Shown: positions 13,199 through 49,341, counted from the stretch's first letter. The stretch is 57,913 bases of DNA from Eubacteriales bacterium (GCA_045591885.1 JAZNTT010000047.1:1-57913); one strand, 5' to 3'. Program-made: numbers and translations. The notes: generated from the sequence alone by a model not told the origin.

Positions 13199-13235
13199 CG
13201 GCTGCCCGAATTACATCGAAAAGGAGTAAATCATT

Positions 13236-14204: not shown

Positions 14205-14205
14205 T

Positions 14206-15075: not shown

Positions 15076-15087
15076 AAGGAGGTCGCA

Positions 15088-17205
15088 ATGAAAAACAGAT
15101 TTACAAAATTTATTGCGGTCCTCATCGCAGTCCTTACGCTTCTCCCGATGGCGGTTATGGCGGAGCCGTATCAGACCTATACTTACAGTATAGACGGAGA
15201 GCAGCTTTCTTCTCCCCACGCATATACGCCTAACGTCATTCTTGACTCCGGCGATATGGGGCTACCGGTAACGCTCAAAAAAGTATCTGACATGGTCGTA
15301 GACAAAAAGGGTAACGTATACCTTGCAGATAAGGATGCGAACGCCATTTACGTCCTCGACAGAAACTTTAAGTACCGCTTTACGATCAATGCCTTTATCA
15401 ACAGCAACGGTATTGAGGACTCATTCAATAATCCCAACGGTTGTTTTGTAACGGAGAGAAATATCTACGTTGCAGATACCGATAACAGGCGTATCGTAAT
15501 TTTCGACCTTGACGGTAACTATGTAAGGCATCTGGAAGAGCCGAAGTCGGATATCTTCGAGGATAACGCAAATTACCGCCCGACCGCTATCGCAGTTGAT
15601 GCTTCCGACCGTATCTACGTCGTATCCCCCGATATCTATCAGGGTATTCTTTCGCTTGATGCGAACGGTCAGTTCCAGGGATATCTCGGTGCGCAGAAGG
15701 TATCGTATAACGCTTGGGAAATCTTCTGGAGAACCTTCCAGACCGCAAAGCAGAGAAGCCAAGGTAAAAAGAACCTCTCGACATCGTATAACAATATAAC
15801 GATCGACGATGAGGGCTTCATCTACTGTACTTCTTCGGCAATTAAGGCGGACGACCAGCAGGCGTCTATCATGAACAAGACCGCAGACTATTCGCCGATC
15901 AGAAAGTTTAACGCCGCAGGTAAGGATATCCTCGGACGTAACGGCTTCTTCGGCCCCGGCGGTGAAGTCAAGATTCAGGGAGGCGAGCTTTCAAATAAGC
16001 CCTCGAGAATCGTTGACGTAGCCCTTGGTCCGTCCGGCTCCTGGTCGATAATCGACGCAGACCGCTCGAAGATATTTACTTACGACCAGTACGGTAATCT
16101 TCTCTTTGCCTTCGGCGACCGCGGAGACCTCCTCGGTAACATAAGCAATATGGCAGTTGCCATTGCATACCAGGATACCAAGCTCCTCGTGTTCGACGGC
16201 CTTCTCCAGACTATTACAGTCTATACCCGTACAGAGTACGGTGACGTCCTTATAAGAGCGCTTCAGAACGAAATCGACCGTAAGCACGGCGAGGCAGTTA
16301 ACGACTATCAGGACATTCTTAAGAGAAACAGTAACTTCGACGCAGCATACATCGGTATCGGTAAGGCGCTTTACCGTCAGGGTGAGTATGAAGAAGCCAT
16401 GAGGATGTTTGCAAGTGCGTACGAGACCGAAAACTATTCTAAGGCACTGAAGGAGCTTCGTCAGAATTGGGCGGATAAGTACTTTATACTCATTCCGATC
16501 GTCGTCGTGGCATTCCTTTTTGCGGTCGTTAAGTTCTTTGGATACGCAGGCAAGGTAAACAAGAAGACCGCTCTCAAGAAGGGCAAAAAGACCTTCAAGG
16601 AGGAAGTTCTTTATGCCTTCCATATCATATTCCACCCCTTCGATGGCTTCTGGGATCTGAAGCACGAAAAACGCGGTTCGGTCAGAGGTGCACTATTCTG
16701 GCTCGCGCTTGCACTCGTTGCAGTTTGCTACCAGTCGGTAGGCAGAGCTTACGTATTCAATCCCCGTGCGTCCTATACCTCAATGTTCGGCTCACTCCTT
16801 TCGCTCTTGGTGCCTGTCGCACTGTGGGTAGTCGGAAACTGGTGCCTTACTACTCTGTTTGAGGGCGAAGGAAGCATGAAGGATATCTTCATTGCAACCT
16901 GCTACTGTGCAGTACCGCTCGTGCTGCTTCTCATTCCCGCAACGGCAATAACCAATATTCTCACGCTCAGTGAGGCAACGATCTACGAAATGCTCGTGTC
17001 GATAGCATGGGTATGGGTAGGACTCCTTCTGTTCTTCGGAACGATGGTTACCCACGATTATCCTCTCGGTAAAAACGTCCTTACCTGTATCGGAACTATT
17101 ATCGCAATGGCAGTCATCATATTCTGTGTACTGCTCTTCTCGACACTTATAATGAAGATGATATCCTTCATTACGGGTATCGTGGTCGAATTGTCGTATC
17201 GGTAA
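15088..17205 (+). CDS. Signal peptide, NHL-repeat beta-propeller, TPR, and a C-terminal Yip1-family multi-TM domain
   Basis: Repeated NHL-like blades (GNVYLADKDANAIYVLD; RNIYVADTDNRRIVIFD; DRIYVVSPD). TPR-like AYIGIGKALYRQGEYEEAMRMF. This is followed by one TM segment plus a 5-TM Yip1-like block (HPFDGFWDLKHEKRGS...). Confidence 0.75.
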   Translation: MKNRFTKFIAVLIAVLTLLPMAVMAEPYQTYTYSIDGEQLSSPHAYTPNVILDSGDMGLPVTLKKVSDMVVDKKGNVYLADKDANAIYVLDRNFKYRFTINAFINSNGIEDSFNNPNGCFVTERNIYVADTDNRRIVIFDLDGNYVRHLEEPKSDIFEDNANYRPTAIAVDASDRIYVVSPDIYQGILSLDANGQFQGYLGAQKVSYNAWEIFWRTFQTAKQRSQGKKNLSTSYNNITIDDEGFIYCTSSAIKADDQQASIMNKTADYSPIRKFNAAGKDILGRNGFFGPGGEVKIQGGELSNKPSRIVDVALGPSGSWSIIDADRSKIFTYDQYGNLLFAFGDRGDLLGNISNMAVAIAYQDTKLLVFDGLLQTITVYTRTEYGDVLIRALQNEIDRKHGEAVNDYQDILKRNSNFDAAYIGIGKALYRQGEYEEAMRMFASAYETENYSKALKELRQNWADKYFILIPIVVVAFLFAVVKFFGYAGKVNKKTALKKGKKTFKEEVLYAFHIIFHPFDGFWDLKHEKRGSVRGALFWLALALVAVCYQSVGRAYVFNPRASYTSMFGSLLSLLVPVALWVVGNWCLTTLFEGEGSMKDIFIATCYCAVPLVLLLIPATAITNILTLSEATIYEMLVSIAWVWVGLLLFFGTMVTHDYPLGKNVLTCIGTIIAMAVIIFCVLLFSTLIMKMISFITGIVVELSYR

Positions 17206-17222
17206 CTACTAAAGAAGGAGAG

Positions 17223-20200
17223 ATGAAAATGAAAACTTATAAGAAATTTTTATCGGCTGTTATGGCCTTCTGTATGTTGCTTGGTACGCTTTCCGTTATC
17301 TTGGCGCTTCCTGCATTTGCCGCCGAGGAAACCGAAACCCCGCAAGAACCGATAAACGCTGTCGACTTTTTCACTTATGAATTTAATACAAAAGAGGAAA
17401 AGGTCGCATCGATGGACCTTATGGCAGAGCGCTATGAATATAAGCTCTACGCCGAGCCGCTGACAGGCGAGGTCGCAATCGTTAATACGAAAACAGGCGA
17501 TATACTTATGACAAACCCCTACGGTGTCGGTTCACTTAAAGCTGCCGATGCCGTAAAGAAAAACCTGCTTTCGCAGGTCATAATCAACTATCAGAGTGTT
17601 GACGGATTGATTGAAGCCAGCAACATGAGCAGCTTCGAAAGTGCTGCCGAGCTCAAGCAGATAAAGGTAAAGCCGATCAAAAACGGTACCCGTGTTGAGT
17701 ATGTAATCGGTAAGCAGGAAACACGTTATCTCTTCCCCGAGCAGATCGAGAAGAGCCGTTTCGAAGAAGAGCTGCTCGGCAAGATCCCGTACGATCCCAA
17801 TACCTATGATTCAAAAACCGCTACCTACGAGGAAAAACAGGCGCGTCTTCACTACAATAAGCTGAAGGCATCCTACGTTCTCAAGGACCCGACCGATGAA
17901 AGCGTTCCGGAATCCGTTCGTGTCGGTATGCTCACACAGTATCCGGTTCTTGACAAAACCTCCGATGTCGGTAAGAACAGCCCGGTTAAGGCACTTTATG
18001 TGTTTGATACGAAGGCAAATGTGAAGCTCAAGAACGAGATTGAGTATATCATCAAGCTGTACTGCCCGAACTACACCTATGAGGATAAGCAGTACGACCA
18101 TGATCTTTGCGCTTATGAGGAAAAGAGACAGAACCCCGTTCAGTTCAGAATTGCTCTTGAGTATTATATTGACGATACCGGTCTCCGCGTAAGAATACCC
18201 GCTAACGGTATCCGTTACGATCAGAGCACCTATCAGCTCAATAAGTTGACCTGTCTTCCTTACATGGGAGCGGCTGACTCTAACTTCACCGGCTATACGA
18301 TGTTCCCCGACGGATCCGGCACTCTTACCAGATTCGAGGATATAAAAGCGGGAGGACAGTCCTTTACTCTTTATGCAACTCCCTACGGACAGGACCACGT
18401 ATACAGAAACACGAAGCAGATACCGAAGAATATGATGCCGACTCGTATGCCGGTATTCGGTATGGTTGAGGATACTCAGTATACTACTACCGACGAAGCA
18501 AGCGGTGAAAGCTCGACTTACGTTCGCAAGAGCGGCTACTTCGCTATAATCGAAGAGGGCGAAGCGCTTGCGAAAATATGTGCGACCCACGGCGAAAAGG
18601 GACATCACTATTACGCTACCGCGATAGAGTTTGAGCCGCGTCAGAAGGATAGCTTCTCGCTCAGCTCGATCGTATCGGTCGGCGGAAGCGGAAACTTCGT
18701 AGGTGTTCTTGACCGCAGATACACCGGTAACTTTACGATTCGTTACATAATGCTTTCTGACCTTGAGTACGGTCAGAATCATGGAATTGATATGACGGGC
18801 TGCTTCGATACAAGCTATCTCGGAATGGCACATGCGTACCGCTCCAGACTTGTGACGACGGGCGCTCTCATTGACGAGAAGCTCGAGGAAGGCGATATCC
18901 CGCTCTACCTCGAAGCTCTCGGCGCAATGAGCGTTCAGGAAAAGTTCCTTTCGATCCCGGTAACCGTCAAGAAGGCGCTTACCACGTTCAACGACGTTAA
19001 GAAAATCCACGCAGAGCTTGGCGAATCGGGCATAACAAACATTGTTTTCAAGCTCACGGGATTTATGAACGGCGGTCTTAAGGGCACGCTTGCCAATCAG
19101 ATCGACGTTGAAAAGGTCGTAGGCGGAAATTCGGGCTTGAAGAAGCTCCAGAAGTATGCAAACGAAAAGAGCTTCGAGATATATCTCGACGCAGACTTCT
19201 CGTATACCTATAAGGACACTCTCTTCGACGGCTTTAACCGCCGCAAGGATGCGCTCCGCGCAATAGATGACCGCTTCGTTCAGAAGCAACAGTATGATGC
19301 AGTCCTTCAGAAGTTCACAAGCACGGGCTTGCTCGTAATTGCTCCCTCTTCGTTTGAGAGCATCTTCAATAAGCTCCATAAGGATGCTAAGAAGCTCAAG
19401 CTTGAGGGCCTCGCTCTGGGCGCTCTAGGTTCCGACCTTTCCTCCGACTTTAACGAGGATGAGCCGTACAACCGCGAGGACTCAAAGCAGCAGGTGCTCG
19501 ACACTCTTGACAAGGTTCGTAAGGCAGGCTACGATCTTATGATAGACGGAGGTAACGCTTACGCGGTTTCTTACGCGAAGCATATCCTTAATATCCCGCT
19601 CGTATCCTCTCGCCGTGCGCAGGCATCGGAGGCGATCCCCTTCTTTGCTCTCGTTTACCACGGATATATCAATTATGCAGGTTCGCCGACCAATATGGCG
19701 GGTGACATGCGTTACGAGACACTTAAGATTCTTGAAAACGGTGCAAACCCCTACTTCATTCTCGTTTACCGCAACTTCGAGAAGCTGAAGGAGGATAAGG
19801 ATCTTTCCAAGTACTTCTCCATCTCCTACCAGAACTGGAAGGAAGACCTTATTGAGACCTATACGGCTATTAACAAGGCGCTTTCTCCCGTAAGAAGCTC
19901 GACAATCGTCGGTCACGGCTTCCTTACCGGTATGAGAATGCCGACCGCAGAGGAGCTTGAGGCTGACCTTCTCGAAAAGGAGCAGGCAGACAAAGAGCAG
20001 GCGGATAAGGAACAGGCAGAGAAGGATGATGCCGAAAGAGAAGAACAGCTCAAGGATCATCTCGGAAATAACTATATACCTAACGATACCGAAACGGAAA
20101 AGCCTGAGATTGCCGCTCCGACCGAAACCGTTTCCAAGTATCTGGTTGACAACGGAATGATAGTTAAAGTAACGTTTGAGAACGGCTATAGCTTCATTCT

Positions 20201-20327
20201 TAACTACAACTATTTCGACGTAACCGTTGAAGAACTCGGAGATACCGTTATTTCGGCTCTCGGATACGTTGTGCTTAACGCAAACGGCGAAATAGTAGTC
20301 AACAGCGGAGAGGAGGCGGCAGCATGA
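17223..20327 (+). CDS. Large secreted protein of unknown function (DUF5696-like by recollection)
   Basis: Signal peptide ...ILALPAFAAEE. I recognise no catalytic motif with certainty. The FPDGSG and LDADFSY stretches resemble DUF5696 proteins that co-occur with Yip1-family genes. The alternative start at 17229 has better RBS spacing. The stop overlaps the next gene's ATG. Confidence 0.65.
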   Translation: MKMKTYKKFLSAVMAFCMLLGTLSVILALPAFAAEETETPQEPINAVDFFTYEFNTKEEKVASMDLMAERYEYKLYAEPLTGEVAIVNTKTGDILMTNPYGVGSLKAADAVKKNLLSQVIINYQSVDGLIEASNMSSFESAAELKQIKVKPIKNGTRVEYVIGKQETRYLFPEQIEKSRFEEELLGKIPYDPNTYDSKTATYEEKQARLHYNKLKASYVLKDPTDESVPESVRVGMLTQYPVLDKTSDVGKNSPVKALYVFDTKANVKLKNEIEYIIKLYCPNYTYEDKQYDHDLCAYEEKRQNPVQFRIALEYYIDDTGLRVRIPANGIRYDQSTYQLNKLTCLPYMGAADSNFTGYTMFPDGSGTLTRFEDIKAGGQSFTLYATPYGQDHVYRNTKQIPKNMMPTRMPVFGMVEDTQYTTTDEASGESSTYVRKSGYFAIIEEGEALAKICATHGEKGHHYYATAIEFEPRQKDSFSLSSIVSVGGSGNFVGVLDRRYTGNFTIRYIMLSDLEYGQNHGIDMTGCFDTSYLGMAHAYRSRLVTTGALIDEKLEEGDIPLYLEALGAMSVQEKFLSIPVTVKKALTTFNDVKKIHAELGESGITNIVFKLTGFMNGGLKGTLANQIDVEKVVGGNSGLKKLQKYANEKSFEIYLDADFSYTYKDTLFDGFNRRKDALRAIDDRFVQKQQYDAVLQKFTSTGLLVIAPSSFESIFNKLHKDAKKLKLEGLALGALGSDLSSDFNEDEPYNREDSKQQVLDTLDKVRKAGYDLMIDGGNAYAVSYAKHILNIPLVSSRRAQASEAIPFFALVYHGYINYAGSPTNMAGDMRYETLKILENGANPYFILVYRNFEKLKEDKDLSKYFSISYQNWKEDLIETYTAINKALSPVRSSTIVGHGFLTGMRMPTAEELEADLLEKEQADKEQADKEQAEKDDAEREEQLKDHLGNNYIPNDTETEKPEIAAPTETVSKYLVDNGMIVKVTFENGYSFILNYNYFDVTVEELGDTVISALGYVVLNANGEIVVNSGEEAAA
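19977..20021 (+). repeat. Three tandem 15-nt coding repeats, (K-E-Q-A-D/E)x3
   Basis: aaggagcaggcagac / aaagagcaggcggat / aaggaacaggcagag. They encode EKEQADKEQADKEQAEK in an acidic linker near the C-terminus of the 17223-20327 product. Confidence 0.7.
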
Positions 20328-21316
20328 CGGCGGTAAAAAAGAAAAAAAGCGTCAAGAAACGCAAGAAGATAGTCTCGCTTGATAAGAAAAAGGCAAGATC
20401 CGGCTGGCTGTTCGTTCTTCCCTTTATTATCGGAATTATCCTTATATATCTTCCGATAGTTGTTGATTCTATCACATACAGCTTCACGAAAATAGTACCG
20501 ATTCCTATGTCCAAGGGCGGCGGATACCGTCTCGAGTCTGTCGGTTTTGAGCATTACTACAAGGCGCTGACAGAGGATCCGAAATTCACCGAGGTGCTTA
20601 TCTCGGGCGTTAAGGACCTCGTGTTTGATATTCCCGCGATAGTAATCTTCTCGCTCTTTGTAGCGGTACTTCTTAACAAGAAGATCCTCGGACGCGCAGC
20701 GTTCCGTGCGATATTCTTCATTCCTGTCATTCTTTCGACAGGACTTATAAACGAGATAACGGGCCTTGCTTCGGCAGGTCAGGAATACATGGGACAGACC
20801 GGCACCGTTGACGATGGATCAGGCTCATCCTCGGCAGACGGAATTTCGCAAATAGTATCTGTAACCGATTTCAGATGGCTATTCCAGAATATGCAGGTTG
20901 GTAACGGACTTATCAAGTATGTAACGGGCATTGTAAACGATATCTATAACATCATCAACCGCTCCGGTGTACAGATGCTTATTTTCCTTGCCGGACTTCA
21001 GTCTATCTCCCCCGCGATATACGAGTCCTGCTCGATAGACGGCGCGACGGGATGGGAAACCTTCTGGAAGATAACGTTCCCGATGATAAGCCCGATGATC
21101 CTCGTAAACGCGATCTACACGGTTATTGACTCCTTTACGTCGAGCGATAGCCAGATAATGTCGTACATCAGCGAAAAGGCGACGGACATCATGGGAGGCG
21201 GCGGACGAGAGATCGCTACCGCAATGTCGTGGCTCTACTTCCTCATAGTTATTGGAATAATTGCTTTGGTAGCGGCTGTTCTTTCGGCTTATATCTTCTA
21301 CCAGAGACGTGATTAA
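20324..21316 (+). CDS. Sugar ABC transporter permease (MalF type), second pair
   Basis: ATGA overlap with the upstream gene. Lys-rich N-terminus, then TM segments. EAA loop AIYESCSIDGATGWETFWKITFPMI. Confidence 0.9.
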   Translation: MTAVKKKKSVKKRKKIVSLDKKKARSGWLFVLPFIIGIILIYLPIVVDSITYSFTKIVPIPMSKGGGYRLESVGFEHYYKALTEDPKFTEVLISGVKDLVFDIPAIVIFSLFVAVLLNKKILGRAAFRAIFFIPVILSTGLINEITGLASAGQEYMGQTGTVDDGSGSSSADGISQIVSVTDFRWLFQNMQVGNGLIKYVTGIVNDIYNIINRSGVQMLIFLAGLQSISPAIYESCSIDGATGWETFWKITFPMISPMILVNAIYTVIDSFTSSDSQIMSYISEKATDIMGGGGREIATAMSWLYFLIVIGIIALVAAVLSAYIFYQRRD

Positions 21317-21329
21317 GGAGGGGACTGTT

Positions 21330-22373
21330 ATGAATAATGCTAAAACAAACTCTCCGGAGATCAAGAGAGAATCCAAAAACAAGATAAGAGTAGATTTTGA
21401 GAGAACGAGCTGGTGGACCCGTTTCCGCCTTCGTTTCCTTACGGGAACCGCGGTTGCTAAGGGTCTTGCATGGCTGTTCAGATTCCTTCTTCTCCTCGGA
21501 ATCTCCTACGTAATTCTCTTCCCGTTCTATACGAAGATCGCTTCGTCTTTCATGGGACGTAACGACTTTATCGACGTAACGGTAAAGCTTATTCCGAAGA
21601 GACCCACGCTTGATACCTATAAGGCGGTAATCGAGCATCAGGAGTATTTTGACGGACTGGTGGGAACGGCTACGCTGTCGCTTATCTGTGCAGTCCTTCA
21701 GACTTTGATTTGCGCAATAATCGGTTACGGCTTTGCAAAGTATAAGTTCAAGGGCAGAAAGCTTCTTTTCGCGCTCGTTGTATTTACGATGGTCATTCCT
21801 CACGAGACGCTTCGTACGTCGATGTTCATGAAGTTCCAGAATTTCGATATAGGAATGGGTAACTTTGGCATTCTGAAAATGCTGGGTATCGAGCCAATGG
21901 ATATGACCGAAAGCTATATACCGATGATTATGCTTTCTGCAACGGGACTTGCGTTTAAGAACGGACTCTTCATATTTATGATGAGACAGTTCTTCTCGGG
22001 CGTGCCCGATGAGCTTGAGGAGTCGGCGTATATTGACGGCTACGGCCCGTTCAAGACGTTCTTTAAGATCATCATTCCGATTTCGATTCCGATGCTTATA
22101 ACGATATTCCTCTTCTCGTTTGCATGGCAGTGGACAGATAACTTCTACGTTACTCTCTTTAACCTGCAGCAGAACGATAACATTTTCCTTCTTAACGATA
22201 TAAAGGGTGTTCCTGCAGTACTGAAGGTAAAGGATTATCCGGGTGAAGCACTCTTCACCTCTGCGGTTTACAGTACCGAAGCAATTCTCGTAATGCTTCC
22301 TCTCGTTGTACTCTACCTCTTCTGCCAGAAGTACCTCGTTCAGGGTATCGAACGCTCCGGTATCGTCGGCTAA
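21330..22373 (+). CDS. Carbohydrate ABC transporter permease (MalG type), second pair
   Basis: The start at 21330 follows RBS AAGGAGGGG. EAA loop ELEESAYIDGYGPFKTFFKIIIPIS. Confidence 0.9.
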   Translation: MNNAKTNSPEIKRESKNKIRVDFERTSWWTRFRLRFLTGTAVAKGLAWLFRFLLLLGISYVILFPFYTKIASSFMGRNDFIDVTVKLIPKRPTLDTYKAVIEHQEYFDGLVGTATLSLICAVLQTLICAIIGYGFAKYKFKGRKLLFALVVFTMVIPHETLRTSMFMKFQNFDIGMGNFGILKMLGIEPMDMTESYIPMIMLSATGLAFKNGLFIFMMRQFFSGVPDELEESAYIDGYGPFKTFFKIIIPISIPMLITIFLFSFAWQWTDNFYVTLFNLQQNDNIFLLNDIKGVPAVLKVKDYPGEALFTSAVYSTEAILVMLPLVVLYLFCQKYLVQGIERSGIVG

Positions 22374-23199: not shown

Positions 23200-24792
23200 A
23201 TGAAAAAGGAAAAACAGCTTGACTCAAACGGTCAGCGAAAATTCGGCATACGAGACAAGCTCGCTTATGCGGCGGGAGATCTCGGCTGTAACATGAGCTT
23301 CTCGCTCAAAAACACGGTTCAGACATTCTGGCTCGTGTATATGATGCTCGAAACAGGGCTTCTTTCGATACTCCTTCTTCTCGTTCAGATCTGGGATGCG
23401 GTAAATGACCCGATGATTGGAACTCTTATCGACAACGACAGAAGAAAATACAAAATGGGCAAATTCAAGACCTATATTCTCATAGGTGCTTGCGGTCTGC
23501 TTGTCGGCGGAGCGGCAGTATTTCTTCCGTTCCCGGGCGCTCCGAAGGTTCTCAAAGCGATCCTTTTCGTGCTCGGATATATCGTATGGGACGCATTCTA
23601 TACGATTGCAAACGTGCCATACGGCTCAATGCTCTCGATCGTTACCGAGGATGTCGGTGAACGCGCACAGCTTTCGACGTGGCGCTCTATCGGCTCTATG
23701 ATCGGTAATATTCTCCCGAGCACTATTCTGCCTTTCCTTATTTGGCGTAAGGTCAAATTCGACGGCACGACCGACTTCCTCAGCAAAATCGAGATCCCGA
23801 AGGACGCGGCGGACAAATTCAGCCCCGATAATATTATTATCAATCCCCTAACGAAAAAGCCTTATGAAATAGGCGACGAAGTATTAAGCCCCCTTACGGG
23901 TAAGCCTCTTGAGGTTCTGCTTGGCGACAGAGTATTCTGGGCGGCGCTCATTATGGGAATCATCGGCTTCCTCGCGTTCATATTCATGATAAAGAATATA
24001 ACTGTCCGCGTTGACGAAAACACCGTCAAAACGAATGAAAAAACCGAAAAGTTCAACATCATAAAGGCATTCGGTAAGTTTATGAAAAACCGTCCCGCAG
24101 TCGGTGCGACGTTGGCGGCAATGGGTATGTTCCTCGGCATGAACGCGGCGGCAACCGCTACGACGATCATGTTCGCGACCTACTTCAATATGGCATCGCT
24201 TTCGGGGCTTGTACAGATGATAGGCTTCCTGCCGATGTTCTTCTTTATGCCGTTCATCACGAAGATCGTTAAGAAATACGGTAAAAAGGAAGCGTCGGTC
24301 GTCGGCACCGCGATATCGCTTGTCGGCGGCGTTATAATGCTCATCTTCCCGATGATAAGTAACGTAAAGACCTCGCTTGTCGTATATCTGCTCGGACTTG
24401 TTATCTACGGTATCGGTATGGGCTTCTACACCTGCGTATCGTGGGCAATGATGGGCGACGCTATCGACTATAACGAATGGAAATTCGGCACCCGTGAAGA
24501 AGGAACGGTATATTCGCTCCACTCCTTCTTCCGTAAGCTCGCACAGGGAATCGGCCCGTCTATGGTTCTTCTTCTTATGGGCTGGCTCGGATACAAGGCG
24601 AAGTACGGCACTATCGGACAGTCGGCGGCAACCTCGCACAATATGTGCTGGCTCGTAGCGGGACTTTATATGTTCAGCGCAGTGCTTCAGTTTATCGGCA
24701 TCGCGGTTATATATAACCTCGACAAGAAAACTCTCGATAAGATGAATACAGAGCTTGCAGAAAGAAAGGCAGAGGCAGAACAAGGAGAATAA
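23200..24792 (+). CDS. Glycoside-pentoside-hexuronide (GPH):cation symporter family MFS transporter
   Basis: KLAYAAGDLGCNMSF...IWDAVNDPMIGTLID is the GPH signature region. It has 12 TM-like segments and an enlarged central loop. Confidence 0.85.
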   Translation: MKKEKQLDSNGQRKFGIRDKLAYAAGDLGCNMSFSLKNTVQTFWLVYMMLETGLLSILLLLVQIWDAVNDPMIGTLIDNDRRKYKMGKFKTYILIGACGLLVGGAAVFLPFPGAPKVLKAILFVLGYIVWDAFYTIANVPYGSMLSIVTEDVGERAQLSTWRSIGSMIGNILPSTILPFLIWRKVKFDGTTDFLSKIEIPKDAADKFSPDNIIINPLTKKPYEIGDEVLSPLTGKPLEVLLGDRVFWAALIMGIIGFLAFIFMIKNITVRVDENTVKTNEKTEKFNIIKAFGKFMKNRPAVGATLAAMGMFLGMNAAATATTIMFATYFNMASLSGLVQMIGFLPMFFFMPFITKIVKKYGKKEASVVGTAISLVGGVIMLIFPMISNVKTSLVVYLLGLVIYGIGMGFYTCVSWAMMGDAIDYNEWKFGTREEGTVYSLHSFFRKLAQGIGPSMVLLLMGWLGYKAKYGTIGQSAATSHNMCWLVAGLYMFSAVLQFIGIAVIYNLDKKTLDKMNTELAERKAEAEQGE

Positions 24793-24793
24793 A

Positions 24794-27073
24794 ATGAGAA
24801 ACACAGTATCCCTTAATAAAGATTGGCTATTTGTAAAAAACACGGCAGACATCACCGCGCGCGAAGGCGAGGCGGTGAACCTTCCTCATTCATGGAACGC
24901 TATCGACGGTCAGGACGGCGGAAACGACTACTTCCGCGGCACCTGTCTTTACGTCAAGACCCTTATAAAGGAGGAGCTTCCGACGGCGGACAGATACTAC
25001 GTTGAGCTTCGCGGAGCAAACTCCTCGGCGGACCTCTACGTCGGCGGCAAAAAGCTCGCGCATCACGATGGCGGATATTCAACGTGGAGAGTAGATATAA
25101 CGGAGGAAATGACCGATAAGACCGAGATAGCTGTATTGGTCGATAATTCCCCCTCAGATACGGTCTATCCGCAGATGGCAGACTTCACGTTCTATGGCGG
25201 AATCTACCGCGACGTCAACCTTATTTGCGTGAACGAGACACATTTTGACCTCGATTATTACGGCGCTCCCGGTATTGCGATCACTCCGACGGTAAACGGT
25301 GCAGAAGCGAGCGTTGAGGTCGAGGTGTACGTTACGAATCTCAAAGAGGGACAGACGATCGTCTATACCGTCTACGATAAGGAAGAAAACGAGCTTTATA
25401 AGATAGAATCGACCGAGACAAAGGCGGTGTTCGACATGAAGAGCGTGCGCCTCTGGAACGGACGTAAGGATCCTTACCTCTACTGCTGTGAAGCGGAGAT
25501 AATGGAGAACGGCGAGGTCGTTGATAACGTGTGCAGCCGTTTTGGCTGCCGTACATTCAAGATCGACCCCGAAAACGGCTTCATACTCAACGGCGAGGAA
25601 TATCCTCTGCGCGGCGTTTCGCGCCATCAGGACAGATGGGGCGTCGGCAACGCGCTTCTTCCCGAGCATCATGAGGAGGATATTGACCTTATCTGTGAGG
25701 TCGGTGCAACCACGATCCGACTCGCTCACTATCAGCACGATCAGTATTTCTTCGATCTCTGCGACGAACGCGGTCTCGTTATATGGGCGGAGATCCCCTA
25801 TATCTCGAAGCACATGCCTCTCGGACGTGAGAATACTGTCTCACAGATGAAGGAGCTGGTATATCAGAACTATAACCACCCCTCGATCGTCGTATGGGGA
25901 CTCTCGAACGAGATCTCGATCGGCGGCTCCGACGATGATCTGCTCGAAAACCACAGAATCCTGAACGACCTCGTTCACGAGCTCGATAAGACACGTCTGA
26001 CGACCATCGCGGCAGTTTCGATGTGCAAGATGGACGACCCGTATCTGCTTATCCCCGACGTTGTTTCCTATAACCACTATTTCGGCTGGTACGGCGGAGA
26101 TACCTCGATGAACGGCCCGTGGTTCGATAAATTCCACGAGGTTCACCCGAATATTCCGATAGGCTGCTCAGAGTACGGCTGTGAAGCTCTTAACTGGCAT
26201 ACCTCCGACCCGAAGCAGGGCGACTATACCGAGGAATATCAGGCATACTATCACGAGGAGCTTATAAAGCAGCTCTTCACCCGTAAATATATCTGGGCAA
26301 CGCATGTATGGAATATGTTCGATTTCGGCGCGGATGCGAGAGCCGAGGGCGGCGAGAACGGACAGAATCATAAGGGTCTTGTCACGATGGACAGAAAGTA
26401 TAAGAAGGATTCCTTCTATGCTTATAAGGCATGGCTCGTTTCCCCGGAGACTGATCCGTTTGTCCATCTCTGCGGAAAGAGATATGTAGACAGAGTTGAG
26501 GACGTTACAAAGGTAACGGTCTACTCGAATCTCCCCGAGGTCGAGCTTTTCGTAAACGGCGAAAGCATCGGCAAAAAGACCGCTCCCGATCATTTCTTCT
26601 ATTTTGACGTCAAGAACACGGGCGAGAGTAAGATCGTAGCAAAGGCAGGCGAGCTTACCGACGAGGGAATCATTCGCAAGGTCGATACGATGAATATGGA
26701 CTACGTCCTCGTCGAAAAGGGCGCGGTTCTGAATTGGTTCGATATCACCGCTCCCGAGGGACGCTTCTCGCTCAACGATAAAATATCCGATATTATCGAG
26801 ACAAAGCGCGGAAAGCTCTGGCTCATCAGCATGGGACTCAAGCTCAAAAAGAAGATGAACGCAAACAAGAAGCAGAAGGACGGCGAAAAGAAGTCGGGAG
26901 GCTTCGACGTCGACCTCAGCGGAGGAGCAGAAAGCGGCATTATGCAGATGCTCGGCGGCTTCTCGGTGCTTCGTCTTTCGAGCATGATGGGAATGATGAA
27001 TATTTCCTTTACCAAGGAAGAGCTTCTCAAAATGAATAAGAAGCTTAATAAGATCAAAAAACCGAAGAGATAA
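24794..27073 (+). CDS. Glycoside hydrolase family 2 (beta-glucuronidase/beta-galactosidase type)
   Basis: The start at 24794 follows AAGGAG. WGLSNEIS is the acid/base region, YNHYFGWY is present, CSEYGCE is the nucleophile region, and WNMFDFGAD...GQNHKGLVTMDRKYKKDSFYAYKAW carries an N-x-K motif. There is a ~150-aa Lys-rich C-terminal extension. Confidence 0.85.
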   Translation: MRNTVSLNKDWLFVKNTADITAREGEAVNLPHSWNAIDGQDGGNDYFRGTCLYVKTLIKEELPTADRYYVELRGANSSADLYVGGKKLAHHDGGYSTWRVDITEEMTDKTEIAVLVDNSPSDTVYPQMADFTFYGGIYRDVNLICVNETHFDLDYYGAPGIAITPTVNGAEASVEVEVYVTNLKEGQTIVYTVYDKEENELYKIESTETKAVFDMKSVRLWNGRKDPYLYCCEAEIMENGEVVDNVCSRFGCRTFKIDPENGFILNGEEYPLRGVSRHQDRWGVGNALLPEHHEEDIDLICEVGATTIRLAHYQHDQYFFDLCDERGLVIWAEIPYISKHMPLGRENTVSQMKELVYQNYNHPSIVVWGLSNEISIGGSDDDLLENHRILNDLVHELDKTRLTTIAAVSMCKMDDPYLLIPDVVSYNHYFGWYGGDTSMNGPWFDKFHEVHPNIPIGCSEYGCEALNWHTSDPKQGDYTEEYQAYYHEELIKQLFTRKYIWATHVWNMFDFGADARAEGGENGQNHKGLVTMDRKYKKDSFYAYKAWLVSPETDPFVHLCGKRYVDRVEDVTKVTVYSNLPEVELFVNGESIGKKTAPDHFFYFDVKNTGESKIVAKAGELTDEGIIRKVDTMNMDYVLVEKGAVLNWFDITAPEGRFSLNDKISDIIETKRGKLWLISMGLKLKKKMNANKKQKDGEKKSGGFDVDLSGGAESGIMQMLGGFSVLRLSSMMGMMNISFTKEELLKMNKKLNKIKKPKR

Positions 27074-40867: not shown

Positions 40868-41372
40868 TTACATTTCCTTCTTTATCCTCTCAATTGCTCC
40901 CTTTTCAACCCTCGAAACCTGTGCCTGCGAGATCCCGATCTCCGACGCGATCTCCATCTGCGTCCGTCCCTTGTAAAACCGCAAATTCAAAATAGTCTTT
41001 TCACGCTCCGAGAGATTTTTAAGCGCCTCTCGGAGCGCGATGCTTTCAAGCCAGCTCTCCTCTGATGCAGTATCGTCACGAAGCTGATCCATAACGTAAA
41101 GGGAATCGTCACCGTCACCGTAAACGGGATCGTAGATCGAGATCGGCGCTGAAATCGCTTCAAGAGCGCGCGAGACCTCTTCTTTTGTTTTCGTATCGCC
41201 TTCCTTGTTAAGCTCCTCGACGATCTCATCAATTGTCGCATCCTTGCAGTCGCGCCGCGAAATGATCTCCTTTGCCTGTAAAGCGCGATAGGCGAGATCG
41301 CGTAGCGAACGGCTTACGCGGACAGAGTTGTTGTCGCGTAAATACCGCTTTATCTCACCAATTATCATCGGC
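40868..41372 (-). pseudogene. 5'-truncated sporulation-type sigma factor (SigG/SigF-like); only regions 2.4-4.2 are present
   Basis: PMIIGEIKRYLRDNNSVRVSRSLRDLAYRALQAKE...EREKTILNLRFYKGRTQMEIASEIGISQAQVSRVEK aligns by eye with the C-terminal two-thirds of Bacillus SigG. The ~90 N-terminal residues (core-binding and -10 melting regions) are absent. An in-frame TAG lies 5 codons upstream of the TTG at 41419. Confidence 0.65.
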
Positions 41373-41412
41373 ATGAATATACCGAGGCGAAAAAAGAAAT
41401 TTATCAAAACTA

Positions 41413-41441
41413 TTGCCAATGAGGGGGAAATGCGCTATAAT
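41413..41441 (+). promoter_or_regulatory. sigmaA-type promoter of metY-metA
   Basis: TTGCCA (41413-18), a 17-nt spacer, then TATAAT (41436-41). The leader to the ATG is only ~30 nt. Confidence 0.6.
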
Positions 41442-43764: not shown

Positions 43765-43770
43765 TGAATC

Positions 43771-43802
43771 AAAAAAACAGACGGCATAAGCCGTCTGTTT
43801 TT
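43771..43802. terminator. Bidirectional Rho-independent terminator
   Basis: AAAAAAACAGACGG-cataag-CCGTCTGTTTTT lies between the convergent metA and GH2 genes. Confidence 0.85.
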
Positions 43803-43820: not shown

Positions 43821-45527
43821 TTATATCTTTAATTTCTCTCCAATATCGGCAAATTCCTCGGGAGTTACCTTAATAACGGCGCGGTCGTAGGTGATAAGAC
43901 CGTTAATTTCGTCCTCAACGTCGGTAAGCTGCGTGTAGACCGAGGCACAAAGACCGTCTTTGGCAAGGGGGATTATCTCATTTTCGTAGAGCTTGCGAAG
44001 TGATGAAACGAATTCCTCACGGCTTTCGCATTTTCCGTATCCGTACGCCTTGTCGGGATTGAAAACGTGGTTTTCAACGCGGTAGCTGTAACCGCCGAAT
44101 TCCGATAGGAACAGAGGCTTGCTTCCCGCCTTCAGCTTCACCTTTCGGAAGTAAATGTGACGGCTGTCGAGGTCGGTTTCTTTACAACGGTACCAGCCCG
44201 ATGCGGTGTCGATATATCGGGTCGGATCAAGCGCCTTCAAACGGCGGTAAGCGGAGTCACCGTCAAACTGTCCCCAGCCCTCGTTGAATATCGTCCAAAG
44301 GCAGATTGAGGCATGGTTTTTGAGAAGTGCGACAGTCTCGTCAAGGTGCGAAAGGAACGCCTTTCGGCTTCGCTTGTCGGGGTGGAGCTTCTTGTCACTA
44401 CGCGAAATAAGTCCGATAGTCGGAAGCGCAGTATCTAAGAAAAACGAGTATTTTCCGTTGTTGACCATGTCCTGAAAAACGACGATACCGTGCTTGTCGC
44501 AAAGGTGGTAGAAATAGGGATGTTCGACCTTTATATGCTTGCGTAGCATGTTAAAGCCGAGGGCTTTTGCTTGAAGAATGTCGTTTTCAATGCACTCAAC
44601 CGATGCGGGAGTGAAGATGCCGTCGCTGAAGTATCCCTGATCGAGAAGCCCGTGGAAGAAATAGGGCTTTCCGTTCAGACACAGACGCTGATGCGAATCA
44701 ACTGTCTTGATCTCAAGCGAGCGGAGAGCGAAGTAGGAGCGCACGGTGTCGCTCTCGGTAACAATTTCAAATTCATATAAATAGGGGTCCTCGGGTGACC
44801 ACAGACGGGGAGAATCAAGCTTTACCTCGGCTTTTCCGTCCTTGAGAGGGAAAACGACCTGCCCGTCGGGAGTACTTACCGTGACCGTTCCGTCCTCAAT
44901 TTGACCGCTAAAATGCGCGGTAATTATAGGATTATCGGGCGTAGTCGGAAGATCAAGACGCTCAATGTAATTTTCCTTCACGCTTTCAAGCCAAACGGTC
45001 TGCCAGATACCGCTGACGGGCGTGTACCACATTCCGCCGCGCTTATTTGATTGCTTTCCGTAAGGGAGAATAAGAGATGAAAGACGGTCGCGGACGAAGA
45101 CGGCGAGGGTATTGTTTTCGCTCAAATACTCGGTAATATCAAAGGAAAACGGAGCGTAGCCGCCGATATGCGAGCCGAGCTTGTTTCCGTTAAGAAAGAC
45201 CTCGGCAACCTGATCGACAGCGCCGAAATGAAGAATAACGCGTCCGACCTTAAAGCCGTCGGGAATCGAAAACTCGCGCTTGTAGCAGAGCGTTTTGCTT
45301 TCGTCGAAGACCTCGTTTATCCCCGAAAGAATCGACTCGGGCGGATAGGGAACGAGTATCTCGCGGTCAAAGACCGGGTTTTCTTGAGAGTCGCAAACAC
45401 CGAAGCTCCACTTGCCGTTGAGATTTATAAACGAATCACGAACGAGCGTCGGACGCGGATATTCGGGAAGCGGAATATCGCCGATGCTCTCGGCGAAGGG
45501 GGTCAAAAGCTGATTAAATTCAGACAT
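43821..45527 (-). CDS. Glycoside hydrolase family 2 (compact, 568 aa)
   Basis: N-terminal sugar-binding domain pattern (LNGKWSF...FLNGNKLGSHIGGYAPFSFDIT). TIM-barrel motifs WTIFNEGWGQ (acid/base) and LSEFGGYS (nucleophile). Confidence 0.85.
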   Translation of the reverse strand: MSEFNQLLTPFAESIGDIPLPEYPRPTLVRDSFINLNGKWSFGVCDSQENPVFDREILVPYPPESILSGINEVFDESKTLCYKREFSIPDGFKVGRVILHFGAVDQVAEVFLNGNKLGSHIGGYAPFSFDITEYLSENNTLAVFVRDRLSSLILPYGKQSNKRGGMWYTPVSGIWQTVWLESVKENYIERLDLPTTPDNPIITAHFSGQIEDGTVTVSTPDGQVVFPLKDGKAEVKLDSPRLWSPEDPYLYEFEIVTESDTVRSYFALRSLEIKTVDSHQRLCLNGKPYFFHGLLDQGYFSDGIFTPASVECIENDILQAKALGFNMLRKHIKVEHPYFYHLCDKHGIVVFQDMVNNGKYSFFLDTALPTIGLISRSDKKLHPDKRSRKAFLSHLDETVALLKNHASICLWTIFNEGWGQFDGDSAYRRLKALDPTRYIDTASGWYRCKETDLDSRHIYFRKVKLKAGSKPLFLSEFGGYSYRVENHVFNPDKAYGYGKCESREEFVSSLRKLYENEIIPLAKDGLCASVYTQLTDVEDEINGLITYDRAVIKVTPEEFADIGEKLKI

Positions 45528-46806
45528 TCTTTTCGTCCTTTTTGAGATTTGTTAAAATGAGATATACGGCAAGAACGACCGATACGATAAGCGCCCAAAC
45601 AAAAATGCGCTCGTCGGGTAAAAACGATTTCGTGCCGTCGCTGTTAATTATCTCTTTCGCGTTTTCAAGCACCTTAGCGCCGATTGCCGGCCCGATAACG
45701 CCGGGAATAAGCACCTGACAAACGATTCGTAAGCCCTGAAACATTCCCGCCTTGCCCTCTGGTGTCCTGTCACGGAGCATCGCGCCGAAAACGGCGTTAC
45801 CGCAAAGATAACCGACCATGACGAGCAGGGAGCCGATAAACACGGGAACGGTGGCCTTTACAAAGCACATAATAACGTATCCAATGGCAAGCGTGGTAAC
45901 GGCGGGGAAAATCACCTTTTTGTACCCGAAGCGGTCATAAAGCCGTCCGTAAAGCACCGAAGCTGCCGCCGCAATTATAATGGCGGGCGCCATTATGAGA
46001 ACGTAGTTCTCCATTTTCAGAGACACCTCATAATAGATTATGAGGTACGGCATGAACACCTGTATCGAAATTCCGAAAAGCGCAAAGGCAATAAGGGTAA
46101 TATAAAGCCCCTTGTTCTGCCTTATAACCGACGGGCGGAAGCCGTAGATGATGTTGGCGAAATACTTCGAGTTTTCCTCGCGCCGAGTGGTACTTTCCTT
46201 GATAAGAAAAAGTCCGAGAATACCGATAATAAATACCGCAATACCGATGATAAGGAAAATCGCAGTCCAGCTCGAGCCGCGGTCAAGATCAAAAGCCATA
46301 AATCCGCCGAAAACTGCAAGCATCGCAATAAGCGGCATAACTGCATTTACGCCCTCAGCCGCACCGCGGTTTCCTTCCGAGGTCTCGTCGGTCAGCCAAG
46401 CGTTAAAGGCGGCATCGTTCGCACTTGATCCGAAAAAGGTCATAACGCAGTCGATGATTATGGTAAGCGACACGCCGATCGACGCCGCCGATAAGGTCGG
46501 GAAAAGGGAATTAAGAACGCCGTTGTTTATAAGCGCAAAGGACATGATCGAAAGTCCCCACGCAATATAGCCTCCCGCCATAAATATCTTTCGCTTACCG
46601 ATCTTGTCGGAAAGCGCACCGATAATTACCGTGGTCAGCGTTGCCGTGACCGCAGAAGCGGCGACCATGAGGGAAATATCGTCAGGTCCCGCCGCGAAGC
46701 GCTTGTATATGAATACGTTAAGGTACATATTCTCGATGACCCACGCGACCTGTCCGATAAGGGAAAAGACGGTAAGGGTCAGCCAGAATCTCTTTTTACT
46801 GTTCAA
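45520..46806 (-). CDS. MFS transporter
   Basis: 12 TM-like segments. TTG start behind AGGAGG. It overlaps both neighbouring genes (8 nt and 11 nt). Confidence 0.8.
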   Translation of the reverse strand: MNSKKRFWLTLTVFSLIGQVAWVIENMYLNVFIYKRFAAGPDDISLMVAASAVTATLTTVIIGALSDKIGKRKIFMAGGYIAWGLSIMSFALINNGVLNSLFPTLSAASIGVSLTIIIDCVMTFFGSSANDAAFNAWLTDETSEGNRGAAEGVNAVMPLIAMLAVFGGFMAFDLDRGSSWTAIFLIIGIAVFIIGILGLFLIKESTTRREENSKYFANIIYGFRPSVIRQNKGLYITLIAFALFGISIQVFMPYLIIYYEVSLKMENYVLIMAPAIIIAAAASVLYGRLYDRFGYKKVIFPAVTTLAIGYVIMCFVKATVPVFIGSLLVMVGYLCGNAVFGAMLRDRTPEGKAGMFQGLRIVCQVLIPGVIGPAIGAKVLENAKEIINSDGTKSFLPDERIFVWALIVSVVLAVYLILTNLKKDEKNV

Positions 46807-47848
46807 CCTTGCTTTCCTCCTTTTTGGGAGCTAAATTTCCGCCGAACGGAGCAGGTACGATAAATTTGTCGACTATCGGCATGGCAACGTCGACAAGAAT
46901 GACCGCAATAAGCGCAGTCAGACCCGCGGCGACGTATCCGCGCAAAAGCATCGTGATTAAACCCGCGGCAATACCGCAAAGAGCAGTACCAAGAGTAGTC
47001 TTAGCCGCTCTTCGTGGCTCGGACATCAGAAATACGGCAACGAGAAGAGTATTTGAACCGAGCATATTGTAAATTGCGCCGTCAAAGGCGATAAAGTCGG
47101 ATGCTGCCTCAAGCGACGGAGAAAGATACGCATAAACTCCGACAGTAAGAATAAAGATCAGCGGCAAAGCGATCTTGACGGTTTTTCTTACCAGAAGATA
47201 AATCAAGCCAATAATTAGAACAAGACCCGATATTTCACCGATGCGCGCGGAATTAAGTCCGAAGAATACTTCAAATGTCGTCGTGTCGGGAAGGAAGCCC
47301 GATAAAACCTTTTCAAGCGGAGAAGCAGGTATCGCCCTGAAGGACTCAAGCTCAAAGGCGAAGGGGTCAAGATTCTGTCCGACCTCGGGAATGACGTTCG
47401 TTATTCCGGGAAAAAGAAGAAATACGAGCAGAACAGAAGCGGCAACGTGCGAAACGGAGAACCTGAGCTTGCCGCATCCGAGCTTGATCGCGGTTGCGAA
47501 GACGGCGGTCATTATCGGAAGCCAGAGAGGGGAAGATGCGGGTAGAAAAAGCGCGATAATAACGCCGCTTACCGCAGGTGTAATATCAAAGTGCGCTTCT
47601 TTTTTCAATACGGTCCTTGAGGCAACGTCAAGGCCCATCATCATTACCGCCGAGATAAGTGCGATGGTAATGGGTCTGAATCCGTAGTGATAAACGCTTA
47701 ATAAGAAAAGGGGAATGGTTGCAATAATGGTATCAATGCGAAGCGATCGCGCACGTTCGGGAAGCGGAAGCAGAGGATAACGCGTAACTTCCTTAAAGCT
47801 TTTGGGACGGCGCGACGGACGGAGGCAGTGATTCCGGTTACTGTTCAT
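46796..47848 (-). CDS. RnfD/NqrB-family membrane protein (orphan)
   Basis: FLMSEPRRAAKTTLGTALCGIAAGLITMLLRGY...AVILVDVAMPIVDKF matches the conserved C-terminal RnfD/NqrB block (FMATDxxTxP...G..G...R...N...P..D). The start at 47848 follows GGAGGTGG. Confidence 0.75.
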   Translation of the reverse strand: MNSNRNHCLRPSRRPKSFKEVTRYPLLPLPERARSLRIDTIIATIPLFLLSVYHYGFRPITIALISAVMMMGLDVASRTVLKKEAHFDITPAVSGVIIALFLPASSPLWLPIMTAVFATAIKLGCGKLRFSVSHVAASVLLVFLLFPGITNVIPEVGQNLDPFAFELESFRAIPASPLEKVLSGFLPDTTTFEVFFGLNSARIGEISGLVLIIGLIYLLVRKTVKIALPLIFILTVGVYAYLSPSLEAASDFIAFDGAIYNMLGSNTLLVAVFLMSEPRRAAKTTLGTALCGIAAGLITMLLRGYVAAGLTALIAVILVDVAMPIVDKFIVPAPFGGNLAPKKEESKVEQ

Positions 47849-49118
47849 TTTCAGCCACCTCCATATCGCCATCGTAAAAATCGGGATCCTCGCCGTCAAT
47901 ATCGACAGAAACGAGTCCGCTGTCGTGACGGAACTTGATTATCGTTTCGGCAAGCGGGATGTCGGACGGACAAACGTAAGAACATGAGCGGCACTCAAAA
48001 CAGCCCGCCGCGTAGAGAGCGAGGGAAGAGTCTCCCTTTCCGTTTTTGACCTTGGAAAAAATGTCAATGGGCGAAAGCCGTGCAGGACAAACGCCGGAGC
48101 AACGGCGGCATCCGATACAGCTGATCTCCTCCCTTTCCTTTATCGGCTCAACGGGCATTACCACGATGGCTTCAGTGCGTTCGGTCATCGTTTCGCCCGT
48201 TATCTCCGCGCCAAAGAGATTTTCTGCGCAGACAGCGCGTTCACCGTCGCCAAGAGAGGCAACCTCCTTCAGCGGAGAGCCGAAGGGAAGGGTGAAAACG
48301 TCGACCTCGCCGCCAAGCTCGGCAACCGTCAGATAGCCTCGGCAGAACGGAATACCCTCAACGAGTGCGCGGTAGCAGGCAAAGCAGAGAAGCGGCGATA
48401 TTACGGGATAGCCCGCATCGAAAATATCCTTTGCGGCATTTATCTCGACGTTATAAAGCGCGGAAAGAGTGAGCTGCGGAATTGCCGCAGGGAGCTTGTC
48501 CTTCGTCAGAACTATCTTAAACATCTTGCTCTTTTTCGGTATATGCGTGTAAAGATTTTCTGCGGCGGTAAGATCGGAACGGGGAATTGCAAAATTGCAG
48601 GTTCTCGCGCCGAGCAGCTTCATAATTATTTTCGCGCCGAGAAGCACCTTTTCGGGGAAATTGCGAAGTATAAACAGACGGCTGTCGTTATAGAGTGATC
48701 CGCCGCAGTCAACGGTGAGGTGTCTCGGGTCACGCTTGCCTTTTTTTATGGGAGCGATACCGCGTTCGAGCAGAAGAGAGGAAAGCTCACTTTCCATCAT
48801 GTCTGCAATATTTTTTTTCGGCGCGTCAAAAGGCGCTTCGGCCTCCGCCTTTGCGTCGGTAAGAAGCGTTATATCAACCCTGTTTCCGATGTGGTAGATC
48901 TGCTCCACCTTACCGCCGACACCCGCAAAAACCGCGGGAGAGGTATCGGTTGCGCGTGCGATCAATCCGAACTGCTTAACGGTGTCGCCCTCATTGAGAA
49001 CGCATTCAGCCCCGTTTTTGAGTGAGAGGAACAACCGCTCGGGCAGGTGATTTATTGACTCCTCGGGCGGAGCGTATTTTCTTGCGAACGGAATGCCTCC
49101 GCGATAGCTTTTAGCCAT
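47838..49118 (-). CDS. RnfC-like protein with two 4Fe-4S ferredoxin motifs and no recognisable NADH/FMN glycine-rich motif
   Basis: RnfC-type N-terminus (YRGGIPF...GDTVKQFGLIA...FAGVGGKVEQI). CIGCRRCSGVCP and CFECRSCSYVCP are present. The start at 49118 follows GGGAGAA. Confidence 0.75.
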   Translation of the reverse strand: MAKSYRGGIPFARKYAPPEESINHLPERLFLSLKNGAECVLNEGDTVKQFGLIARATDTSPAVFAGVGGKVEQIYHIGNRVDITLLTDAKAEAEAPFDAPKKNIADMMESELSSLLLERGIAPIKKGKRDPRHLTVDCGGSLYNDSRLFILRNFPEKVLLGAKIIMKLLGARTCNFAIPRSDLTAAENLYTHIPKKSKMFKIVLTKDKLPAAIPQLTLSALYNVEINAAKDIFDAGYPVISPLLCFACYRALVEGIPFCRGYLTVAELGGEVDVFTLPFGSPLKEVASLGDGERAVCAENLFGAEITGETMTERTEAIVVMPVEPIKEREEISCIGCRRCSGVCPARLSPIDIFSKVKNGKGDSSLALYAAGCFECRSCSYVCPSDIPLAETIIKFRHDSGLVSVDIDGEDPDFYDGDMEVAENEQ

Positions 49119-49341
49119 AATTTCTCCCGAATAAAGAAAATTTATATTACCATTATACCTTAATTCCATATAAATTACAATAATAAAGAGCTATTTTCTT
49201 TTGTTATGTAAAATATGACGGCTTTTTTGCAAAAAAAGTGCCGCAAACGGTTATATGATACCGTATGTTCAAGATTTGTTTATATTTCCGTGCTATACTG
49301 TATGAGTGAAAATTTGTCAACCGATAATGGGGGATATATAA

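Follow-up and report, generated by a model that had tools for sequence, protein, structure and literature searches.

The stretch analysed here, 57,913 nucleotides of DNA from Eubacteriales bacterium, a rumen-type member of the Clostridia (GCA_045591885.1, JAZNTT010000047.1:1-57913; hereafter the window), carries four adjacent genes on its minus strand at positions 43,821-49,118. They encode an RnfC-like protein and an RnfD-like protein, designated RnfC' and RnfD', followed by an MFS transporter and a GH2 glycosidase. Our analysis suggests that the locus is probably a composite operon, in which two separable two-gene modules, RnfC'-RnfD' and MFS-GH2, have one promoter in common. The genes and their bounding signals are as follows:

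49180-49152, minus strand: sigma-70-type promoter, TTGTAA-17-TATAAT, located by promoter scan
47838-49118, minus strand: RnfC-like gene (RnfC'), 426 aa from MAKSYRGG; Fer4 dicluster, RnfC fold, acidic C-terminal tail
46796-47848, minus strand: RnfD-like gene (RnfD'), 350 aa; PF03116, RnfD/NqrB fold, polytopic membrane protein
45520-46806, minus strand: MFS_1 transporter gene, 428 aa, TTG start; PF07690, 136 bits over residues 27-373
43821-45527, minus strand: GH2 gene, 568 aa; Pfam Glyco_hydro_2_N, Glyco_hydro_2 and Glyco_hydro_2_C
43766-43802, minus strand: intrinsic terminator with a 13-bp stem, a 4-nt loop and a T7 run, read from the sequence and its fold

Direct reading of the open reading frames (ORFs) and their junctions bore out the description given in an earlier, sequence-only reading of this DNA: four minus-strand genes, of which the RnfC'/RnfD', RnfD'/MFS and MFS/GH2 pairs overlap by 11, 11 and 8 nt. 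A GGAGG-type ribosome-binding site lies ahead of every downstream start; for RnfD', the ATG was picked for its agreement with the N-termini of homologues. The bounding promoter and strong terminator proposed by the same reading also stood up. The promoter is kept in all aligned intergenic regions from relatives (whose loci are given L numbers), including the distant, high-GC loci L035 and L036, and the terminator hairpin (about 43773-43802) with its T-run folds at -21.7 kcal/mol, with z = -6.3 against shuffled sequences. Bounded by a single promoter and a single terminator, and coupled in translation, RnfC', RnfD', MFS and GH2 form one operon.

Searches of the window found no riboswitch or leader RNA 5' of RnfC'. 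A flavin mononucleotide (FMN) riboswitch, which would have hinted at flavin transport, was accordingly dropped as a candidate; the RnfC' leader measures just about 30 nt. Reading of the intergenic alignment by eye gave no convincing match to a Rex or cre operator in the promoter region. A 19-nt motif, TATAAACAAATCTTGAACA (minus strand, window 49266-49284), is present with at most one mismatch in 14 of the 14 aligned intergenic regions between RnfC' and the divergent ABC operon; L035 and L036, both distant and high in GC, are among the 14. The motif covers the -35 element of an extended -10 (TGnTATACT) promoter of the ABC operon and is probably an operator. The 10-nt string TGAACAGTAA makes both the RnfC'/RnfD' (47838-47848) and the RnfD'/MFS (46796-46806) junctions, so that RnfC' and RnfD' both end in -EQ, and RnfD' and MFS both begin with M-N-S. 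The RnfD'/MFS junction of L001 differs and has no overlap. The repeated string could be due to chance or be a recombination scar.

The encoded proteins

Among solved structures, the best sequence matches of RnfC' and RnfD' are RnfC and RnfD chains (E = 1e-18 and 4e-20, respectively). For RnfC', the label assigned by the sequence-only reading holds at the level of the fold, but not at that of the curated family. The AlphaFold2 (AF2) model (pLDDT 89) finds RnfC as its top Foldseek match (9eri_C, TM 0.81; RnfC range 0.79-0.81) and NqrA as the second (0.62-0.65), while the score against TIGR01945 (rnfC), 99.5 bits, lies well under the NCBIfam cut-off of 246. Weak matches to Complex1_51K and RnfC_N in Pfam, and to PrdC in NCBIfam, were also obtained. 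RnfD' passes the Pfam threshold for PF03116 (135.6 bits against 27.7) and falls below the NCBIfam threshold for TIGR01946 (rnfD; 83.5 bits against 207). Its other Pfam match is a sub-threshold one to DUF1097, and PF00175 is absent. The AF2 model of RnfD' (pLDDT 83) matches RnfD at TM 0.69-0.80, with NqrB ranking second. For both proteins, the fold similarity to NqrA/NqrB (TM 0.62-0.70) is lower than that to RnfC/RnfD.

The alignment to canonical RnfC revealed that the GxGGAxFP loop is deleted (13-14 residues) in all members of the RnfC' family, and that the canonical NGAECEPY and KYPQGxEK are replaced family-wide by VDCGGSPYN and KDKLPAxIP. Both C-terminal [4Fe-4S] motifs (CxxCxxCxxxCP) are kept, with eight of the eight cysteines invariant in the RnfC'-type (orphan) and canonical sequences. 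As its FMN/NADH motifs are gone and the eight cysteines remain, RnfC' appears to be an Fe-S protein that has neither an NADH nor an FMN site, and with that site lost it cannot serve as an NADH-oxidising RnfC. Three cysteines of the degenerate FMN domain (C138, C174 and C245) were considered as a new metal or disulfide site, and this was rejected because C138 and C174 are not family-wide; neither is retained in the homologues P0198, P0200 and P0203 or in L035. The acidic, low-complexity C-terminal tail of RnfC' is short in the window and about 150 aa long in L019 (L019:8436-10073).

In the RnfD' family, the position of the canonical covalent-FMN threonine ([S/T]GA[T/S]) is occupied by S, T, A, D or N, and the Ala and Gly that come before it in the flavinylation motif are not conserved. 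A family-specific insertion, PSLEAASD, is also present. Judging from these alignments, RnfD' is unlikely to be flavinylated covalently. The earlier proposal of a two-subunit module, consisting of an Fe-S protein and a flavin-type membrane subunit, is therefore retained in part: the Fe-S cysteines are there and the pair is a real unit, as natural fusions attest (see below), while the flavin subunit is doubtful, its motif being unconserved. The N-terminus of RnfD' is a short basic tail in the window and a low-complexity extension of about 330 aa in L036 (L036:5163-7118).

The GH2 assignment was upheld and refined to a furanosidase-type GH2. The best PDB matches are 7sf2 (1e-101) and 9j6n (Galf-ase 2; 9e-100), with NEGWGQ (the NE motif) and SEFGG aligned, and the enzyme is predicted to belong, as a cytoplasmic protein, to the furanosidase clade, group III (beta-D-galactofuranosidase / alpha-L-arabinofuranosidase type). 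These two are the characterised activities of group III, whose members have three domains, a catalytic NE acid/base motif and a nucleophile Glu, and which includes the Streptomyces ORF1110-type beta-D-galactofuranosidases (PDB 9J6M/9J6N) and BACCELL_01794 (PDB 7SF2). The operon GH2 has at least 8000 homologues; for the operon MFS, no structural relative was found among solved structures. The cassette resembles group III GH2 and MFS systems in its close E-values, its NE motif and the existence of an MFS-GH2 operon in other Clostridia, and differs in lying behind RnfC'D' without a promoter of its own. The predicted furanosidase activity would be routine catabolism for a plant-fibre gut bacterium. 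A second sugar pair lies on the plus strand of the window (23200-27073), where an MFS_2 (GPH-type) transporter of 530 aa is followed by a 772-aa GH2 with DUF4982, just 26% identical to the operon GH2.

Separate occurrence of the two halves

Conservation of the operon among relatives, which the sequence-only reading had left to be checked, was found in 15 or more of them. All four genes occur in this order in L001-L003, L007, L008, L012, L015-L017 and L019, and L009 and L010 are partly covered. These loci come from one clade of uncultured animal-gut Clostridia, represented by metagenome-assembled genomes (MAGs). Where their contigs reach far enough, they also have the same neighbours, with the ABC-2 operon, PrsA, ComM and TrmA flanking one end and MetA, MetY, a sigma factor and SpoIIE flanking the other. 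The wider synteny is seen in L001-L003, L007 and L008. Since the flanking synteny is wholly common, the four-gene loci represent one vertical lineage and provide no independent evidence.

Elsewhere, the halves are found apart. L036 contains the divergent ABC operon, RnfC', RnfD', a small ORF and a terminator, without MFS or GH2; its ABC ATPase is 79% identical to that of the window, and its RnfC' 34%. Conversely, the MFS (66% identical) and GH2 (60%) genes of L039 and L040 form their own operon, also with an 8-nt overlap, with no Rnf-like genes, and in L037 and L038 the GH2 gene (63%) is monocistronic. Inside the clade, L011 and L013 have the order RnfC'-RnfD'-GH2 with the MFS gene cleanly absent, and the MFS gene of L014 is frameshifted. 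Because the RnfC'D' and MFS-GH2 halves occur separately, a coupling of RnfC'D' to a glycoside is unsupported. Directly 3' of RnfD' in L036, a 35-codon ORF (L036:7282-7389) encodes a Cys-rich membrane peptide.

These comparisons bear on the central proposal of the sequence-only reading, namely that the redox module acts on the glycoside that MFS imports and GH2 cleaves, or powers its uptake, so that the four proteins form one system. The start/stop overlaps, the single promoter and terminator, the four-gene order kept in the loci listed above and a GH2 homologue adjoining the canonical rnf operon of L021 would all fit such a system. However, L036 and L039/L040 each carry one module without the other, L011 and L013 have lost the MFS gene, RnfC' and RnfD' change 3-4 times faster than MFS and GH2, and the conserved loci reduce to one vertical lineage by their full flanking synteny. 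Furthermore, the catabolism of a free furanose needs no redox step. We therefore regard the proposal as unlikely, and the evidence from the sequences points away from a biochemical function common to RnfC'D' and MFS-GH2. In the composite operon that we favour, MFS-GH2 would carry out the ordinary uptake and hydrolysis of a furanoside, a Galf- or Araf-containing (galactofuranose or arabinofuranose) oligosaccharide, and in the window's clade it would sit 3' of RnfD' and be transcribed from the RnfC' promoter.

Several observations weigh against the composite operon. The co-transcription of MFS-GH2 has persisted within the clade although its members have diverged deeply (dS is saturated and RnfC' identity falls to 35%), which could reflect selection for joint expression. 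In an Oscillospiraceae MAG (L021:6676-9980), a GH2 gene whose product is 42% identical to the operon GH2 lies directly upstream of, and divergent from, canonical rnfCDGEAB; GH2 genes beside rnf could represent an old rnf-GH2 synteny. The genomic context covers just a minority of the approximately 25 RnfC' clusters described below. Finally, the negative results for rnfGEAB and apbE cover the window, and these genes may lie elsewhere in the genome. Remoter GH2 genes (27-28% identical) occur 3-4 kb from an RnfD-like gene in L025, L029, L030 and L032.

Another conceivable partner of RnfC'D' is the divergent ABC-2 / GldG-like / DUF4340 transporter operon, which RnfC'D' might serve as a redox or energy sensor or as an accessory of the exporter. 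This operon is the only invariant neighbour of RnfC'D', adjacent and divergent in every locus reaching upstream of RnfC', and the adjacency holds in the distant L035 and L036 (ABC ATPase 79% identical); moreover, the intergenic region common to both operons contains the invariant 19-nt motif. However, the synteny of PrsA, ComM, TrmA, MetA, MetY and SpoIIE is equally conserved (L001-L003, L007, L008), and as this wider synteny is conserved too, the adjacency may be plain vertical inheritance. The contexts seen include no independent ones, and the 19-nt motif overlies the -35 element of the ABC promoter, approximately 85 nt upstream of the RnfC' -35. On balance, a role of RnfC'D' in the transporter operon seems distinctly improbable.

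The window has further features of its own. At 40868-41419 on the minus strand lies a SigF/SigG-like sporulation sigma factor ORF of 183 aa, comprising regions 2.4-4 only; its N-terminal half was not found in any upstream frame. A 166-aa gene is called at the same position in the relatives L001 and L003, and the sigma gene may be truncated or split. On the plus strand, 10094-22373 holds a large cluster that encodes two 1034-aa proteins, one with a solute-binding domain and one with DUF5696, as well as four ABC permeases and a Yip1/NHL-repeat protein of 705 aa.

RnfC'D' as a selected unit

When 1.84 billion representatives were searched exhaustively by profile and the matches were re-scored against hidden Markov models of the orphan and canonical types, RnfC' of the orphan type fell into about 24-28 clusters at 50% identity. 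The clusters sampled are all rare and all metagenomic, one being labelled Oscillospiraceae, and a metagenome scan with RnfC' motifs yielded two loci only. The RnfC' family appears to be lineage-restricted, with all members from uncultured gut Clostridia.

Two natural proteins, P0205 (886 aa) and P0207 (877 aa), are single-chain RnfC'-linker-RnfD' fusions with the orphan-specific features. They are 48% identical and come from different sources, and provide Rosetta-stone evidence that RnfC' and RnfD' act together. The overlapping junction between the two genes is present in most loci with gene calls (L001, L003, L007, L008, L009), and their divergence runs in parallel across loci. While the flanking genes are 90-98% identical across relatives, and MFS and GH2 66-91%, RnfC' and RnfD' are 35-78% identical. 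The ratio of nonsynonymous to synonymous substitution (dN/dS) nevertheless remains low (RnfC', 0.13-0.19; RnfD', 0.11-0.26), also in pairs whose dS is unsaturated (L001/L015), indicating that both genes evolve fast and yet are under purifying selection. The ORFs stay intact at identities as low as 34%, and motifs found only in this family, such as GAKIIMKL and GYPVVSP, are invariant. Taken as a whole, the comparative data indicate that RnfC'D' is a genuine two-subunit unit, functional and not decaying. The dS values themselves are raised in RnfC' and RnfD' (1.0-1.3, against 0.3-0.9 in ABC ATPase, GH2 and MetA of the same genome pairs), which could stem from differences in codon usage or expression, or from recombination.

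It could be argued that RnfC' and RnfD' are dead relics of a decayed rnf operon and that MFS-GH2, using the old rnf promoter, is what selection maintains. The lost cofactor motifs, the fastest amino-acid divergence of the region (identities of 35-78%, where the ABC ATPase has 90-97%), the drift of the canonical ATD motif across the family (ATDP, LTDP, ASDP, SEPR) and the split RnfD' of L009, where an assembly gap also lies, agree with decay. Yet dN/dS is far under 1, for the close pair L001/L015 as well, the ORFs are intact at 34% identity, the eight Fe-S cysteines are invariant, as are many residues specific to the family, both AF2 models are of high confidence, the fusion proteins are independent and the pair persists alone in L036. 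We reject pseudogenes on the strength of the dN/dS values, the invariant Fe-S cysteines and the fusions, and give the relic explanation very little credence.

The sequence-only reading was also right that the RnfC-like/RnfD-like pair lacks rnfGEAB nearby. Searches by tblastn with the canonical proteins found no RnfG, RnfE, RnfA or RnfB homologue in the 57.9-kb window; Pfam gave no Rnf-G/E/A/B or ApbE-type match among the window ORFs scanned, and no Rnf-Nqr or FMN_bind match in the flanks of L001-L003, L007 and L008. It is hardly probable that RnfC' and RnfD' serve as alternative subunits of a canonical RnfGEAB core whose genes lie elsewhere in the genome. Although they retain the RnfC and RnfD folds and related Oscillospiraceae MAGs hold partial Rnf sets (RnfD-RnfE-RnfA trios, L022-L033), RnfD' is without the flavin site required for the RnfG-to-RnfD electron step, RnfC' is without the NADH site, so that the hybrid would have no NAD+ end, the window holds no rnfGEAB, and a pattern-limited genome scan gave no second locus from any orphan-bearing MAG.

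The partial sets deserve mention in their own right. In L022-L033, 12 loci from Oscillospiraceae/Ruminococcaceae MAGs, tblastn matched an RnfD-like and an RnfE-like protein, together with an RnfA-like one in 2 of the 12, and left RnfC, RnfG and RnfB unmatched. By Pfam, L024:9980-13832 contains an RnfD-RnfE-RnfA trio, with the gene for a DUF4015/GHL6 putative glycosyl hydrolase after it; in L024, the RnfE-like protein is longer by a C-terminal region of about 150 aa. To judge from these matches, L022-L033 look like another undescribed partial Rnf set.

Likeness to known complexes and possible function

The nearest relative of the pair is Rnf, the RnfCDGEAB ferredoxin:NAD+ oxidoreductase (9ERI, 7ZC6, 8AHX), which provides the best matches in sequence and fold. 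The two share the C-then-D gene order, the overlapping C/D junction, as seen in the clostridial rnf operons of L004, L020 and L021, and both RnfC [4Fe-4S] motifs. On the other hand, the locus has a C-like and a D-like gene only, instead of the six genes normally found in one operon. The FMN/NADH motifs of RnfC' are deleted or replaced, RnfD' has an insertion and an unconserved flavinylation motif, and both proteins score under the NCBIfam RnfC and RnfD cut-offs. RnfC'D' appears, by sequence, to descend from the RnfC-RnfD part of Rnf, and probably works like it, while lacking the subunit set, the NADH/FMN and flavinylation sites and the curated scores that define Rnf.

NqrA is an RnfC homologue that has lost its cofactor sites and still docks on the RnfD homologue NqrB. 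Similarly to NqrA in the Na+-NQR, the nucleotide/flavin domain of RnfC' has degenerated, but RnfC' holds both Fe-S motifs that NqrA lost, and no NqrC-F genes are nearby. PrdC and PduS, stand-alone electron-transfer proteins, are RnfC homologues that work outside Rnf, which is their point of likeness to RnfC'. To our knowledge, they differ from RnfC' in keeping the flavin and NADH site and in having no RnfD partner.

A two-subunit Nqr/Rnf-like complex has been reported, in which an RnfD-like protein fused to the NAD-binding PF00175 domain is combined with a flavinylated RnfG/NqrC-like subunit (Meheust et al. 2021; bioRxiv 10.1101/2024.03.13.584918). It is the only two-subunit Rnf derivative described in the literature searched. 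Like RnfC'D', it is a reduced Rnf derivative with a cytosolic redox input domain and an RnfD-like subunit whose flavinylation site is unconserved. However, the partner of RnfD' is an Fe-S RnfC-like protein, RnfD' has no PF00175 domain, and no FMN_bind subunit is encoded in the operon or its flanks. No description of an RnfC-like/RnfD-like two-subunit pair was found in the literature searched, and the sequence-only reading likewise knew of no described system with the make-up of the four-gene operon.

How might such a pair work? Within the composite operon, RnfC'-RnfD' would derive from the two leading genes of a clostridial rnfCDGEAB operon and be restricted to its lineage. RnfC' would dock on the cytoplasmic face of RnfD', as in the RnfC-RnfD sub-complex of Rnf. 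Our best guess is that ferredoxin or another low-potential carrier exchanges electrons with its Fe-S clusters, that electrons pass, in either direction, between these clusters and a non-covalent cofactor or path in RnfD', and that NADH plays no part in the transfer; a ferredoxin-linked membrane module is thus a guess. A bolder reading, which we put forward tentatively and consider rather doubtful, is that RnfC'D' is an unrecognised minimal membrane redox module, a two-subunit or single-chain Fe-S-only descendant of Rnf. Such a module would couple ferredoxin to a membrane cofactor or ion path without NADH, covalent flavins or RnfA/E/G/B, and would be a living intermediate of the cofactor loss that leads from RnfC to an NqrA-type protein.

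The locus calls for caution in annotation, as automatic "RnfC" and "RnfD" labels here do not imply a ferredoxin:NAD+ oxidoreductase, and tight operon coupling, overlapping codons included, is not by itself proof of a common biochemical pathway. If RnfC'D' is active, an RnfC-RnfD sub-assembly is able to exist, and to be favoured by selection, on its own. An active RnfC'D' would also bear on the assembly and dismantling of Rnf and Nqr in evolution, including the loss of cofactors in NqrA, and would give the energy metabolism of uncultured Clostridia from rumen and gut a new minimal membrane module.

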